Below the pieces are notes generated by a model. That model saw only the letters and a program-made list of their open reading frames with translations. It ran no database searches and was not told where the DNA came from. A program made the translations under genes and the position numbers. A stretch of DNA of 62,472 bases, filler included, from Globobulimina sp. (taxonomy: Eukaryota): the NCBI GenBank assembly GCA_003354225.1. It is 38 parts of 38 records of this genome, joined end to end, with 100 filler letters (N's around TTAATTAATTAA, not from the genome) between each part and the next. Parts side by side here need not be neighbours in the genome. Positions count along the whole stretch, not along the records: positions 54,347 to 55,892 come from PIVH01015010.1; 37 more parts are not named here. The stretch is one strand, 5' to 3'. Shown here in pieces: positions 47,950 through 55,992 of this stretch (the stretch's first letter is position 1; each line of letters starts with the position of its first letter).

Positions 47950-49308
47950 TTATAAAAAATAGAAACAGCACATAATAATACTCAAAAAACAGCAGATGCC
48001 GATACAAATATATACTCTGCGATTTATAGCTTTTTTATTGCTTTGAATATCTTCAGATTTATTAATTGATCTCCATTTTGGTGTACCACGCTTTTTATTT
48101 TGATAAAATAGATTTACACATTCACTGTACTTCGAAAACTGATTACATTCCATTAACAATTTACTATCCATTAAATCCTGAATCCATTTTGGCGGATTAT
48201 TCGCATTTTGTTGCGACAATTTAATTTCTAAAACACACATTGGATAATCTGACATCTCATCATCTGAAATATCAGCAAACCGAGTAAACCATTGTGAATT
48301 TAACAAATTATCCTTTTCTTTGATAAATTTCAAATTCAAATCTAATGAGATTACCAATGAATCACTGCTTGCGAACTGAAACACAATTCGTTTAAAAACA
48401 GTCCGTGTTTTGGGTTTTAAATTTAGTGTTTTTATCATTTCAAAAACTTCAGTTTGTAGCTGTACATTGCCGGTACCATCATTCCCATCATTAATAAACG
48501 AAATTATTTCAGCATTTTTCATGCAAAAACGTTCAGTTTCTGCTACTTTATCACATTCAGCATGTTTCCGCTCAAAATGTACAGTTTCTGCAGGTTGAGG
48601 GTCGTTATTTCCATACCACCGAATACGAAGACATTTGCCCGTTTCATAACATTCAAAATCATCATTATCAAAATAAACAGAGCTAATTTTGTCATAAACG
48701 GACTCATTTTCTTCCTTTTTTTCATCAATATAAATAGGAACACGCTGCGTAATCATACCAATCACCTCAAATATGTCACTGTTATGCACCCAATATTTAA
48801 TATTTTGTGCCACATTTTTGTGTGGGTTGCTGTTGTTTATTTTATTTATTTGTTCATCATCAATTTCATCATACAAAGAGGGCATTTGTTTAATTGCAGG
48901 AAATAAGATATTCTGCGGCGCATATTTTAATTTAGAGTCCCAAACTGTTTCTAATTTATTTGCCGGTGATATAGCATCATGTTTCAATATTAAATGATTG
49001 AAATTCTGCTGGTTGCTCCACACAAATTCATTGAATTTTAATATTTTTAACATTACTTGTTTCGAAACAGGCTCTGTCAATATTTTTGTTGCCGTTTCTT
49101 GTGCAAATTTTTCATATTTTCTCCATTCTTTGTCCAGTGCTTTGATGAATTCATTTTGGAATTTCGGCTTTTTTTCTCGTATACGCAGTAAAACGCGCAA
49201 TTCGTAAAAATTGATATATCCCGCACTGTATTCGTCGTGTTCCACATTTTCAAGCTGGTCAAAATATTTTTTTATGGCCAGAGTGTCCACACTGTCTTGC
49301 TTTTTATG
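47950..49308 (-). CDS. SPX-like + VTC polyphosphate-polymerase domain protein (Vtc4/Vtc2-like), 5' partial
   Basis: KYWVH, ISSVYFDN, LRIRWYG, FERK, ERF, ISLDLNL, VLEIKL, PKWI, FSKY; degenerate SPX upstream; one C-terminal TM. Confidence 0.9.
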   Translation of the reverse strand, partial: HKKQDSVDTLAIKKYFDQLENVEHDEYSAGYINFYELRVLLRIREKKPKFQNEFIKALDKEWRKYEKFAQETATKILTEPVSKQVMLKILKFNEFVWSNQQNFNHLILKHDAISPANKLETVWDSKLKYAPQNILFPAIKQMPSLYDEIDDEQINKINNSNPHKNVAQNIKYWVHNSDIFEVIGMITQRVPIYIDEKKEENESVYDKISSVYFDNDDFECYETGKCLRIRWYGNNDPQPAETVHFERKHAECDKVAETERFCMKNAEIISFINDGNDGTGNVQLQTEVFEMIKTLNLKPKTRTVFKRIVFQFASSDSLVISLDLNLKFIKEKDNLLNSQWFTRFADISDDEMSDYPMCVLEIKLSQQNANNPPKWIQDLMDSKLLMECNQFSKYSECVNLFYQNKKRGTPKWRSINKSEDIQSNKKAINRRVYICIGICCFLSIIMCCFYFL

Positions 49309-49563
49309 NNNNNNNNNNNNNNNNNNNNNNNNNNNNNNNNNNNNNNNNNNNNTTAATTAATTAANNNNNNNNNNNNNNNNNNNNNNNNNNNNNNNNNNNN
49401 NNNNNNNNCTGGTGGTACAAACCATGGACTCTCTCTCCAAAACTCAAACAAAATGCTGGTTATAATTTATAAAATATATTAAACTACACCTCCTTGCACA
49501 TGTATGTACACAAGTTATAATTATTAAACATTTAACCTTTTAGATAAAAACTGAGTGAAAACC

Positions 49564-50520
49564 ATGGCAGATTTAACAGCCAAAGCCGTATTAAAGGCAG
49601 GGAATACAGCTGTTATAACAGGCGCTAGTTCAGGTATCGGCCGCGCCGCAGCCGTATATTGTTCATCAGTCGGGATGAATGTATGGTTGGTTGATATCGA
49701 TGAAAAGGAATTAAAACAAGCCAAAGAATTAGTTTTATCCAAGTGCGCCTCGAAAGATCAAAGCATCGAAACCCGTACAGTGGATGTATCCAATATTGAG
49801 CAAGTTGAAAAATTAAGCATCGACGTCTTTGCTAATGGCAAATGTCATTTTTTAATGAATAACGCAGGTATTGGTGCAGGTGGCGGTGCGTTGACAGATA
49901 TCAAAACATTTACACGCGTAATGAATGTGAATGCCTATGGTCCAATCCATGGCTGTTTAGCATTTATACCGAAAATGAAGGCGTCGAATGAATGTGGCAT
50001 TATTGTGAATACCGGCTCTAAACAAGGCATTACAATGCCTCCTGGCAACTTAACTTATAATGTAAGCAAAGCCGCATTGAAAGCATATACGGAAGGATTG
50101 GAATTCGAATTAGGCAAAGAACGGCGTGAACAGAATGGCAAATTAAAAGCGGCGCTGCTTGTACCTGGTTGGACCAATACGTCGATAATGTTAAAGAATG
50201 AGCGCGCAAAATTCAAGGCGGAGGAAAAGAATGAGGAGCAAAAATTTGATGCAAATTCTGTGTTTTTCCATGAGGAGAAGCCTGCCAAAGGGGCTTGGAT
50301 GCCGTCACAAGTGGTCGAGTACATGATTGAGTATTTGAATGAGCAGAAATTTTATATTATATGTCCGGATAATGAGGTGGATAAAGAACTGGATAACTTC
50401 CGTATGACCTGGACAATGCAAGATATTACGCAAGATAGACAACCTTTGTCACGTTGGCATCCTATGTATAAAGACAAATTCACTGAATTTGTTGATAAAA
50501 ATAAAAAAGTGCAAAAATAA
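49564..50520 (+). CDS. Short-chain dehydrogenase/reductase
   Basis: TGASSGIG, NNAG and the catalytic YNVSK; complete ORF. Confidence 0.95.
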   Translation: MADLTAKAVLKAGNTAVITGASSGIGRAAAVYCSSVGMNVWLVDIDEKELKQAKELVLSKCASKDQSIETRTVDVSNIEQVEKLSIDVFANGKCHFLMNNAGIGAGGGALTDIKTFTRVMNVNAYGPIHGCLAFIPKMKASNECGIIVNTGSKQGITMPPGNLTYNVSKAALKAYTEGLEFELGKERREQNGKLKAALLVPGWTNTSIMLKNERAKFKAEEKNEEQKFDANSVFFHEEKPAKGAWMPSQVVEYMIEYLNEQKFYIICPDNEVDKELDNFRMTWTMQDITQDRQPLSRWHPMYKDKFTEFVDKNKKVQK

Positions 50521-50755: not shown

Positions 50756-51128
50756 CATGATTTTGTATAATAGTATTATAATATAATTTTATTTCGTCGA
50801 TCCCAAAAACTTTTTTAAGTGAAGTAAAACTTTAATTCCTCTTCAAAAGTCTCTGATTCTTGAATACTTTCCATCCTTTTTTATATCCGTGGTGTCAAAA
50901 GGGTATATATCCATTGTTTAAATAATGACAATAATCATGTATACAAACCAAACTNNNNNNNNNNNNNNNNNNNNNNNNNNNNNNNNNNNNNNNNNNNNTT
51001 AATTAATTAANNNNNNNNNNNNNNNNNNNNNNNNNNNNNNNNNNNNNNNNNNNNTTTGAATTTTCTTTTAACTTTTTTTTTTTAAAACTTCAGTCAAAAC
51101 CTGAATTTTCTGGATTATTCAATCAACC

Positions 51129-52600
51129 ATGAAACAATCATTAATCAATCACTGCAAAACAATCGCACATAACTATCAAAAATGTGATCCATATTTGCTT
51201 GTATCATCACGTGGAATGATGAATAAATCAAAATATTTTGGAAATGACATTTTGGGGCATTCACTGACCAAAAAAGAGGCATACTTAAGTAAAAAAAAGC
51301 AAATGACAGAATTATGCACTGAATGGAATCCAACATTTCATGGTAAATTTACCAAAAAAATGGATTTATGTCAATCCGGAGATGATATTATAAAAACATT
51401 AACAAACATTGAAAACGAAATGGATGCAATTCCAGACACCATACAATATGTAAACGCCATTCGAAAAGCAGCATCGTTAAGAGAGTACAACACATGTTTC
51501 AAAATATTTGCCATTGCAAAAGAATCACAAAGAATTAACGTAACATTGTATGCTGTGATGATTTGGGTTTGTGCTCAACAAAGAACTGTTTTATCGCTAA
51601 ACATCGGACTCGAATTATTTGTTGAAATGCAATCCGTTTATTCCCTAACACCTTCCATTGAAATTTACAACCAATTATTAGCTCTTTGCGTGAAGACATT
51701 GGAATATAATAAAGGCAAATACGTTTGGAAAGATCTAAAAAATAAACGCAAAGACTTTCAGTACTCACAGCCAGATATATCAACCTATAATATTATGATG
51801 GATTTGTTTTGTAAATGTGGGGAAATGCATAAAGCAGTGGATATTTATGAAGGTTTATTAAATGGGAAATATGCAGATTTAAAACCAAATTATGTTATTT
51901 ATACCACATTGATCCAAGCATTTAGTAAACACAAATTGATAGAAACAGTACAAAAGTTGTTTGATAAATGTATGCAAACTTGTTATGTGAACACAAAACA
52001 ACATAATGAGGAACATTGCAAACAATTACTGATTCTAACGCAATGTTTATTGGATGCTTATGCAAATATTGGTAATGTCGATAAGTGTGTGGATATTATT
52101 ACAAATATGATGGAAAAACAACATGCTACGTATGATTGGACGCATTTCGCCAATCCAAATGTGCAAATGTTTACATGCGTTTTAAAAGCATTGACAAGAT
52201 ACAAAATGAAACAGAATGACCAGATTGTGAATGAAATTCACATTAATTATGAAACATGTTGGACGATTATTGAATGGTGTTTGCAATGTATGGATATGTT
52301 AGGAATTAAAAAGGATGCAATTGTTTATGGCAACTTGTTTCATTTAAGTGGGGATTTATATGGCAATGCTGATTTGGATCTGGCTCTAAAATATTATCAA
52401 GAAATGAAAGAAAATAATATTAAGCCTGGCGAGTTGCAAATGTTTAATTTGTTGAAGACTGGAAAGCAATATCATCATCACAAGAAAACCAGCAATTTGG
52501 AAAGAAAGGAATTTGTGAAATATATATTAAACGAGTTGCAGGAACAAAATGTTGTTCCCAGTACACAAATAAGAAAATTGGTGAAAAAAATAATGGGAAC
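51129..52600 (+). CDS. Pentatricopeptide-repeat (PPR) protein, 3' partial
   Basis: PSIEIYNQLLALC, PDISTYNIMMDLFCKCGEMHKAVDIY, PNYVIYTTLIQAFSK, LALKYYQEMKENNIKP. Confidence 0.9.
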
Positions 52601-53738: not shown

Positions 53739-54480
53739 GCTCTTAAAAATCTGTCAGAACCACAGCAATCATTGGCAATATCGCTTCAACAACAAAAAAT
53801 CTAAAACGATAATTTACAACGACAATACCCTGAATAACAATAACATAAACACTTACAATATAAATGATATACTGTAATAGTGTGAATTAGAAAAATCATT
53901 ATTTTTTCAGTGAAAAACATACTTTTCATCGAAAATCACAGTTTGCATTGAAATGGCACTAGTTTTACACACTTTTCATAGTCTGTGAATTTCATTGAAA
54001 AACATGCATTGAAATGACACTGGTTTGCATCAAAATTACACCATTTTCGTATTCTATGAATTTCATTGAAAAACGGCGAAATCCACATTAAAACGGCCGA
54101 TATCAATACATTAATACGGTCAGAATCGATTCATAAATACCGCCAATATCGATCAATTAAAACGGACATATTAATACCGCCAAATTCCATATATTAATAC
54201 GCCAAAATCCATAATAATACGGCCAAATTATATATTTTAAAACAGCNNNNNNNNNNNNNNNNNNNNNNNNNNNNNNNNNNNNNNNNNNNNTTAATTAATT
54301 AANNNNNNNNNNNNNNNNNNNNNNNNNNNNNNNNNNNNNNNNNNNNTAATCCACTCTGCTGGCAAGCAATCCTCTTAGACATAAGTAGACTTTAAATGTA
54401 ACGGTCTCAAAAAAAACTTAGTTGGCCATAGTCTAATTAAAAAAACCCGTTTAACAACGATAAAGTTTCCTAATTTCCTA

Positions 54481-55751
54481 ATGAAGTGCTTTGTAACAAC
54501 GATAAAGCGTCAGGTGATATACTCATCGTCTCCAAAGTTTTAATTAAACAAACCTCACAAACGTATTTGATATGTTGACAGAAATTGACCAAGATTTTAT
54601 TGGTTAATATAGCAGCATTTATATTGATGACAATAATATGTCTGCACTGGCAATTCCAGGATGAATATAACAATGAAAGTGATAATATGCATCCTCTAGT
54701 AATTGAAAATAAAAGCAGTTCATCGATGAGCAATGCAAATTGTTCAACACTATGGAGAAAACAATATCAAATTCCAATGGATAATGAAGAACTCAAGGAA
54801 AGAGTGTTGAAATATTTAGGAGTGTTTACAGCATCATATCATGGTCAGTCCGGTTACTACATATATAAATTCAACAAAGTGCCCAAAGGAACATTCACAT
54901 ATTGGTTATCTCACATTGCATCACAACATAGAATAGCAGATAAAGCTTACTTTGCAGATAAATACCTTATGAAAGAATATATTAGTGACTATACCAAAGA
55001 ATTTCCAGCATTTAATAAAATTAAACACGCTCAAATTCTCTATGATTTTGTGGGTGGCGAACAACTCTCTTTTGATGAATTGATTGATTTAAAAGAGAAA
55101 TACAAGGCATTTTTGGTGAAACCCAACCATTTTTCTGGAAAACAAATAATTGTGAAGGCCAACGATACCGTTACTTACAAGCGATATAAAGAGATTATGC
55201 GACAGTCACATAACTGGTTACAGCGTAAATATAAAAAGAAAAGCAATGGAATTAACAGAGAGAGTTGGTATGAATTAATAGAACCACATAGATTCATTGA
55301 AGAAAATATTAATATTGATCCTCAAAAATATCCTTTAACGGAGTATAAAATAAATGTGTTGAATTACAAAGCGTTATTTGTATATGTTCATAATGTGATC
55401 CTGATCCATTTGCATCTTTTTATTTTGCCAGAATTTGAGTTATTGGATGTAAGTTGGTGCGCGGAGCGAAGCAATAAAAGCATAGCGGATCAATTAGTTC
55501 CAATTCCATCAAAAGCAAATTTGCGTTTAATGATTGATTTTGCGGAACACTTTGCCGTCAGAGAAAAATGGAAATATGTACGGGTTGATTTGTATGAAAT
55601 AAATAACACAATTTATTTTTCAGAGTTTACATTCATGCCAATTGCTGGCACTGCAATAATGAGACCTATATCTTTTGATTATTTGTTGTATGATATATTA
55701 TGTGAGGATAAGCAAACAGATTATGATGAAATATATGAATATGTATTGTAG
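54481..55751 (+). CDS. TupA-like ATP-grasp protein with type II membrane anchor; intron 54514-54581
   Basis: ADKYLMKEYI, FLVKPNHFSG, ESWYELIEPHRFIEE, EYKI, YVRVDLY, IYFSEFTFMP. Exon MKCFVTTIKRQ splices CAG|GTGATA..TGACAG|AAA in frame to the TM segment. Confidence 0.85.
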
Positions 55752-55992
55752 AGCTAATTAAATTTTCTATTTCTATTTATTACATTTTCAGTTTTTATAA
55801 CAACAAGTTGTACGAAATTTCATATACAATTCTAAATATAACTTTTTTGTTTGAAAAAAGTTATTTTTTTTGTCATCCATAAAAGGCAGTGANNNNNNNN
55901 NNNNNNNNNNNNNNNNNNNNNNNNNNNNNNNNNNNNTTAATTAATTAANNNNNNNNNNNNNNNNNNNNNNNNNNNNNNNNNNNNNNNNNNNN

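Follow-up and report, generated by a model that had tools for sequence, protein, structure and literature searches.

A spliced-type, membrane-anchored TupA-like ATP-grasp gene of a probably lumenal foraminiferal subfamily with giant-virus-type relatives

Background

TupA-like ATP-grasp proteins belong to an enzyme class already known from bacteria. The C-terminal TupA-like domain of Cj1438 (Cj1438C) is reported to amidate C6 of glucuronic acid (GlcA), using ATP and serinol-P or ethanolamine-P (PMC11800379). CfmP of Klebsiella pneumoniae is likewise described as TupA-like; a conserved Glu is needed for its function, and according to the published description its phenotype concerns pilin modification and is independent of surface polysaccharide (PMC12632600). 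The acidic organic matrix of foraminifera, about whose chemistry little is known, serves as the template for a large part of marine carbonate; glycosaminoglycans are reported to be a major part of this matrix (PMC11648905).

Here we describe a TupA-like gene from the foraminifer Globobulimina sp. (assembly GCA_003354225.1, hereafter G000), whose product carries a membrane anchor. Type II glycan-modifying enzymes of the Golgi typically combine a short basic tail, one anchor, a stem and a lumenal catalytic domain with N-glycans; we know of no characterised lumenal ATP-grasp ligase in eukaryotes. A published account of foraminiferal TupA-like proteins, or of the family in other protists, was not found among the papers listed by our searches, and an earlier mention of eukaryotic TupA members may exist. 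A term search of a review on giant-virus glycans (PMC9614988) found no occurrence of 'grasp' or 'amidat', the main text of a bioRxiv preprint on gene transfer in Rhizaria holds no 'ATP-grasp' (its supplements may list the family), and passages in PMC8383183 and PMC3417536 do not bear on the foraminiferal family. Because the enzyme class is known from bacteria, the novelty is limited to the new setting and the subfamily.

Results

The window, i.e. the whole stretch of DNA analysed (62,472 nucleotides, filler included), consists of 38 size-sorted contigs of 1545-1548 bases each, joined by N-TTAATTAATTAA-N linkers, and adjacency within it is artificial. As these contigs are unrelated, the sole true context of the gene is 54347-55892 (PIVH01015010.1; G000:C15010), and the window neighbours were ruled out as genomic context. 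No second gene was found on this contig, on which the TupA-like gene stands alone, and an Rfam search of it gave 0 matches. Other contigs of the window carry a PIF1-like helicase ORF (PF05970; 55994-57537), possibly of a Helitron-type element, a reverse transcriptase fragment (PF00078; 52764-53738) and, each on a separate contig, VTC-domain (47950-49308, minus strand), short-chain dehydrogenase (49555-50520) and PPR (51105-52600) genes, all unrelated to the contig under study.

Table 1. Features of the TupA-like gene and its contig (positions along the window)
Feature	Position	Strand	Evidence
Exon 1, 11 codons: ATG and basic cytosolic tail	54481..54513	+	ATG at 54481
Spliceosomal intron, 68 nt, GT-AG	54514..54581	+	joined and unjoined forms in runs
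Exon 2: 389 codons and stop (= P0001)	54582..55751	+
Predicted N-terminal signal-anchor helix, single, type II charge bias	54594..54650	+	KD 2.34; charge +5/-4; helical in model
Predicted lumenal stem	54651..54878	+	Asn/Ser-rich disordered segment (three sequons), followed by C54 of P0001, a Cys specific to foraminifera, and helices
TFxYW motif in place of bacterial TFxEK	54891..54905	+	148-row alignment
TupA-like ATP-grasp domain PF14305	54924..55694	+	profile match, conserved residues, fold
High-copy dispersed host repeat, contig 5' end	54347..54440	.	many G000 contigs match; X1 depth >11,000
Second high-copy dispersed host repeat, contig 3' end	55772..55892	.	G000 contig matches; raised depth

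The first-pass annotation had described a short exon, a GT-AG intron, one transmembrane segment, a Ser/Asn stem and an ATP-grasp domain, and its coordinates proved exact (Table 1). The spliced product of 54481-55751 is an intact protein of 400 aa. Read unspliced, 54481-54600 has stops in all three frames, and exon 2 alone offers its first in-frame ATG only at residue 16, in the middle of the anchor. Together the two contig-end repeats have at least 42 matches in G000 contigs (40 of 347 candidates scored); they are unclassified, and many G000 contigs stop at them.

Reads of four (X1, X5, X6, X8) of ten listed runs were compared with the contig; none of the listed runs is recorded as RNA, X6 being RNA by guess only and the type of X5 not on record. 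The intron is retained in an X1 contig (contig 3) that spans 54475-55452. In X5 and X6, which stem from two other studies, loose-end letters before 54588 join the end of exon 1 directly to exon 2, with 9 exon-1 letters at the joint in X5 and 21, of which 18 are identical, in X6. The X6 contig (1240 nt) begins 56 letters before 54588 and finishes 35 past 55748, and is thus transcript-like. The joint across 54514-54581 is absent from the computed joint table of the run comparison, the joined form being seen in loose ends only. Because the joined X5 and X6 contigs carry the letters of a second copy, C8582, or of a related allele (93-97% alike, not the exact window copy), it is in near-copies rather than in the window copy itself that splicing is seen. 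The spliced reads predicted by the first-pass annotation were accordingly recovered for near-copies, and none had the window copy's own letters. The intron of C8582 is identical to that of the window copy at 67 of 68 positions and follows the same exon 1, which is strong, if indirect, reason to expect that the window-copy intron is spliced in the same way.

At two sites the window copy departs from its family, with H278 and F280 where 17 of the 19 foraminiferal rows of our alignment have N and Y; position 55413 is C in the window copy and A, which gives N, in all of X1, X5, X6 and X8. Small indels relative to all four runs fall within 55380-55420, which encodes an unusually hydrophobic strand, and represent either an assembly variant or a frame shift compensated nearby. 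The upstream repeat ends about 40 nt before the ATG, and this proximity together with H278/F280 suggests that the window copy may be drifting.

The assembly contains at least three copies: the window copy, C8582 (93% identical, partial, with the same intron and another upstream flank) and C156 (50% identical, no intron apparent); one paralogue scores 55.1 bits against PF14305. Directly upstream of the C156 copy, on the same strand and less than 100 bases away, stands a gene for a type II sulfotransferase (PF00685, E 1.3e-7; L006:5028-6047); the other paralogue adjoins an unrelated coiled-coil gene. A ThiF/E1-like gene lies further upstream on the C156 contig, which also holds unannotated ORFs for secreted or membrane proteins. 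The fourth PF14305 match in G000 (C22301; L001), a TupA gene of bacterial type that follows an ORF for a membrane protein, was excluded from the paralogue count; it shows that bacterial DNA is present in the assembly. Another contig, C1446 (L088), holds an intron-free, AT-rich pair of a UDP-glucose-dehydrogenase-family gene and an apparent hyaluronan-synthase-type GT2 gene (labelled by eye), and possibly belongs to a giant virus.

The closest relatives are 12 EukProt proteins with 40-54% identity, the remaining four of 16 matches reaching 26-32%; of the EukProt relatives looked up, eight came from Bolivina argentea and five from Nonionella stella, which makes a foraminiferal host very probable. 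P0023 (NCBI source) and P0028 (73% identical, named in another EukProt style) could be assigned to no species, and we accordingly claim no absence of the family from test-less foraminifera; an Atlas search gave scores of 0.86 only. The gene is one member of a multi-copy clade of foraminifera (Bolivina, Nonionella and G000), and the view of the locus as a eukaryotic nuclear gene is upheld by the intron with its joined forms and by host repeats at both contig ends.

The family assignment of the first-pass annotation holds, with a PF14305 match (E 1.1e-12) of 48.4 bits against a gathering cut-off of 25. In an alignment of 148 TupA-like rows, 19 of them foraminiferal and 108 labelled by us as bacterial-type, 13 columns are at least 90% invariant, and the window protein keeps all 13 (P0001 numbering: D126-K127, K180, E227, Y230, E240, Y255, R334, D336, Y338, F346, E348 and T350); their ATP- and metal-binding roles we take to be those of the corresponding residues in Ddl. 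The N-terminal bacterial motif TFxEK, with E in 91 and K in 93 of the 108 bacterial-type rows, is replaced by TFxYW, with Y and W in 16 of the 19 foraminiferal rows each. Likewise NHGSG has mostly become NHFSG and YFGE has become YFSE. On this alignment TFxYW marks a distinct subfamily. Since the invariant residues are kept and these motifs are altered, the catalytic core appears intact and the substrate side perhaps changed, so that the substrate site may differ from that of bacterial uronate ligases.

An AlphaFold2 model built from the 148-row alignment has a pLDDT of 88 and a pTM of 0.84, with pLDDT below 50 at residues 30-49, in the stem. Searched against 48,161 chains, it matches Ddl/VanA ligases best (Z 11-12, maximum 12.1; rmsd 3.5-4.3; about 200 residues aligned). 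Peptide ligases and macrocyclases (ArgX/LysX, PsnB, MdnC) also occur among its fold neighbours. An earlier model from 14 rows (pLDDT 64) also had ATP-grasp proteins as Foldseek matches. A profile search of PDB sequences at E 1 gave 0 matches, and a search of NCBIfam with four proteins gave 0 families.

The hydrophobic peak (KD 2.34) covers residues 16-34 of the spliced protein, flanked by a charge of +5 on its N side and -4 on its C side. A second stretch of KD 2.0 (residues 274-294) is a beta-strand in the model and is not hydrophobic in the relatives. Of the 19 foraminiferal rows, 15 have an N-terminal hydrophobic segment (KD at least 1.8) and four have no N-terminal part; among the 108 bacterial-type rows, 1 has such a segment. 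In 15 of 16 proteins of the foraminiferal clade the charge difference points to N-in/C-out. The foraminiferal rows have an excess of sequons both in the catalytic region (57 versus a shuffle mean of 32.6, a count reached in 0 of 300 shuffles) and in the stem (29 versus 13.4), related rows being counted as independent in both comparisons; bacterial-type rows have no excess (131 versus 140.9). The stem cysteine (C54 of P0001) is kept in 15 of 19 foraminiferal rows. Taken together, anchor, charge bias, sequon excess and stem cysteine indicate that the catalytic domain probably faces the lumen of the secretory pathway. The type II layout read from this gene at first pass is therefore retained as a prediction, with a single anchor, a positive-inside bias and a sequon-rich C-terminus, and by analogy of layout the Golgi is the most likely place of residence.

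A profile search of 1.84 billion representatives returned 5294 matches at E 0.001 and 20 at 1e-30. Those ranking below the foraminiferal block are small proteins with an N-terminal anchor of their own. One such anchored TupA-like gene (L056) has a major capsid gene of NCLDV type (PF04451, E 3e-46) at a distance of 3 kb. In two GVMAG loci (L041 and L036) anchored TupA-like genes occur amid genes for GT8, sugar epimerase/dehydratase, SIS/HAD and PLOD-type glycosyltransferase proteins, and a third (L083:7941-8105) holds, between glycosyltransferase-like genes, a 54-codon, internally deleted remnant of the sister type with anchor and C-terminal motif. Most glycosyltransferase-like genes of L041 and L036 also encode an N-terminal hydrophobic anchor; the epimerase/dehydratase and SIS/HAD genes are those of L041. 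The best viral structure matches (BFVD) are from Mimiviridae sp. ChoanoV1 and Marseillevirus LCMAC103.

Our main tree is unrooted and was inferred under LG+C20 PMSF from 256 columns and 40 rows that we picked from 223. In it the eight foraminiferal rows form a clade (100/99), joined next by P0025 from a Nonionella transcriptome (99/94) and then by seven virus-type rows including L056 (99/93); 16 bacterial-type rows stand apart (93/85). Recoding into four states (SR4) keeps the grouping of foraminifera with virus-type rows at 87.7/90, and the larger quick and FastTree trees return it at 91, unstarred. Part of the sister set came from a targeted search, and only L056 and the L083 remnant in it have viral context; other eukaryotic homologues, among them a mostly haptophyte Atlas cluster of 76 members, are sampled thinly in the trees. 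On these trees the foraminiferal clade is sister to small TupA-like proteins that have an anchor and are of giant-virus type, nesting within viruses not being seen in the unrooted tree. The bacterial-type origin proposed in the first-pass annotation is, as a direct transfer from bacteria, not borne out, with this anchored virus-type set as sister and a forced grouping of foraminifera and P0025 with the 16 bacterial-type rows rejected (AU p 0.0275).

The sister virus-type proteins are 23-30% identical to P0001. Only 2 of 11 virus-type proteins have the type II charge bias, and their sequons are not in excess (23 versus 19.6). As the nearest relatives are themselves anchored, an N-terminal anchor on a TupA domain is not an invention of eukaryotes only; as they have neither the charge bias nor the sequon excess, commitment to the lumen looks like a foraminiferal change.

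Three eukaryote-looking TupA-like proteins (P0077, P0039 and P0172) form a branch of their own; the N-terminus of P0077 is hydrophobic, and its TupA part is fused to an asparagine-synthase-like amidotransferase domain. A search of viral contigs with the foraminiferal profile gave 66 pattern matches, of which 0 were confirmed, and a search of a phage collection with P0187 gave four weak matches of at most 31%. A phage-like contig from IMG/VR (L084) has, adjoining virion-type genes, a cluster of glycan genes that includes a TupA fusion.

Discussion

Our data reveal a real, intact member, with a spliceosomal intron, of a distinct foraminiferal subfamily within an enzyme family known from bacteria; the subfamily is anchored and, as far as sequence features indicate, probably lumenal. 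Our interpretation of location, activity, substrate, role in the matrix and direction of transfer builds on what was observed, namely the structure of the gene, the fold, the residues kept, the clade and its sister group.

We propose that the protein is a type II membrane amidoligase whose catalytic domain would reside in the secretory lumen, most likely that of the Golgi. With lumenal ATP it would convert a carboxylate of a secreted acidic glycan, most likely C6 of a uronic acid, into an acyl phosphate, which would then condense with an amine (an amino acid or aminoalcohol) to an amide, and such amidation may tune the charge or the cross-linking of a glycosaminoglycan-like matrix. ATP import into the ER is described as established. 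We regard the chances of the core of this proposal, in which lumenal ATP serves to phosphorylate the carboxyl of a uronate in a secreted glycan and an amine is then condensed with it, as even. Amidation of a glycan is the best available idea, by analogy to Cj1438C and given the glycosylation genes near the viral relatives and one paralogue. The first-pass annotation suggested that amino acids or peptides may be added to secreted glycans or to wall or test matrix; the amine donors reported for Cj1438C are aminoalcohol phosphates (PMC11800379). The assembly also contains an intron-split, eukaryote-type UDP-glucose dehydrogenase gene, putatively of the host. Amide-decorated foraminiferal glycans were not found in the literature searched, and two supplementary files of a proteome of the test matrix, where a Golgi enzyme need not appear, do not contain the family term.

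The gene family may have been acquired, or have originated, alongside a line of giant-virus proteins with an anchored TupA-like domain, and would then have gained the stem, the sequons and (in the window copy) the intron, and expanded. That foraminifera exchanged an anchored ligase with giant viruses, made of it a lumenal Golgi family and now amidate with it the uronic-acid polymers in the test's organic template is, as one complete scenario, doubtful. If it were true, foraminifera would have a capsule-like amide decoration of eukaryotic glycans and, with it, a direct handle on matrix charge in biomineralisation. Should the predicted function hold, an ATP-grasp amide ligase would operate inside the eukaryotic secretory pathway, and amide-substituted acidic glycans would be expected in foraminifera. 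The tree also points to unnoticed anchored TupA-like enzymes in the glycosylation clusters of giant viruses and to gene exchange between viruses and protists.

Several alternatives to the amidation of a glycan can be considered. On the one hand, the substrate could be a protein or peptide: a lumenal amidoligase could act on the Asp/Glu side chains of secreted proteins, acidic matrix proteins among them, by amidating, extending or cross-linking them. The motif on the substrate side is not that of bacterial TupA, ArgX/LysX, PsnB and MdnC are among the fold neighbours, CfmP is described as affecting protein and not polysaccharide (PMC12632600), and acidic proteins are reported from the organic sheet (PMC11648905). 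However, the sequence is clearly TupA-like, the characterised member Cj1438C acts on glucuronate (PMC11800379), and the viral relatives and one paralogue adjoin glycan genes, so that we consider a protein substrate unlikely.

On the other hand, the same chemistry might take place elsewhere, in a surface ecto-enzyme, a cleaved secreted enzyme or a cytosolic domain, and act on a small molecule or a glycan precursor. Golgi retention is deduced from layout only, and the ancestral orientation was perhaps cytosolic, given that the viral sisters have neither the type II charge bias nor the sequon excess. A cytosolic domain is nevertheless at odds with the charge bias, sequon excess and conserved stem cysteine of the foraminiferal proteins, and free ATP would be scarce outside the cell, which speaks against an ecto-enzyme; we hold this family of alternatives to be distinctly unlikely.

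A further alternative leaves the proposed activity to the family and regards the window copy as recently duplicated and now decaying or subject to relaxed selection. It would account for H278 and F280 in place of the N and Y of the family (reads of the four runs giving N), for the repeat that abuts the 5' flank and for the fact that no spliced contig has this copy's own letters. The listed variants are mostly non-synonymous as well (11 of the 15 changed codons listed for X1 and 14 of the 21 listed for X6, 45 further variants being unlisted), but most changes lie in the stem, and reading frame, splice sites and all near-invariant residues are intact; we consider decay of the copy very unlikely. 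Finally, that the locus is a bacterial or viral contaminant of a mixed assembly is largely refuted and has next to no probability left: although the assembly does contain the bacterial-type C22301 and the virus-like C1446, the intron has joined forms, host repeats flank the gene at both contig ends, identity to foraminiferal transcriptome proteins is 40-54% versus at most 32% to the other proteins found, and scans of metagenomes (28 loci) and prokaryote genomes (7 loci) gave only distant matches, with best segments of 23-36%, all bacterial-type where checked.

Amidation of a uronate in the secretory lumen thus remains our preferred reading, and the comparison with known systems delimits it. 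The foraminiferal protein shares PF14305 with Cj1438C of Campylobacter jejuni HS:2, and ADK, K.NH, E.WHY, EE, YK, RVDLY and E.TF correspond by eye; ATP-dependent amide formation on a carboxylate, described for Cj1438C, is only predicted for the foraminiferal protein. In contrast, Cj1438C forms one domain of a multidomain bacterial glycosyltransferase encoded in a capsule locus and has TFNEK (PMC11800379), whereas the foraminiferal protein is stand-alone, anchored and sequon-rich, has TFxYW and is encoded by a gene of spliced type. CfmP is likened to it by description, not by sequence, and differs in that it is reported to act on protein, independently of surface polysaccharide, where we propose a uronate glycan. 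D-Ala-D-Ala ligase and VanA are the nearest solved folds, yet they are only 11-17% identical.

With the glycosyltransferases and sulfotransferases of the Golgi the protein shares, on sequence features, the succession of tail, anchor, stem and domain and the predicted N-glycans, but its catalytic domain is that of an ATP-grasp ligase. The TupA-like proteins of giant viruses resemble it in a single N-terminal hydrophobic anchor followed by the domain and, in part of the sister rows, in a motif of the type T-F/L-x-Y-W/Y. They differ from it in their size of 275-310 aa and in having no stem, no intron seen, no sequon excess and no type II charge bias.
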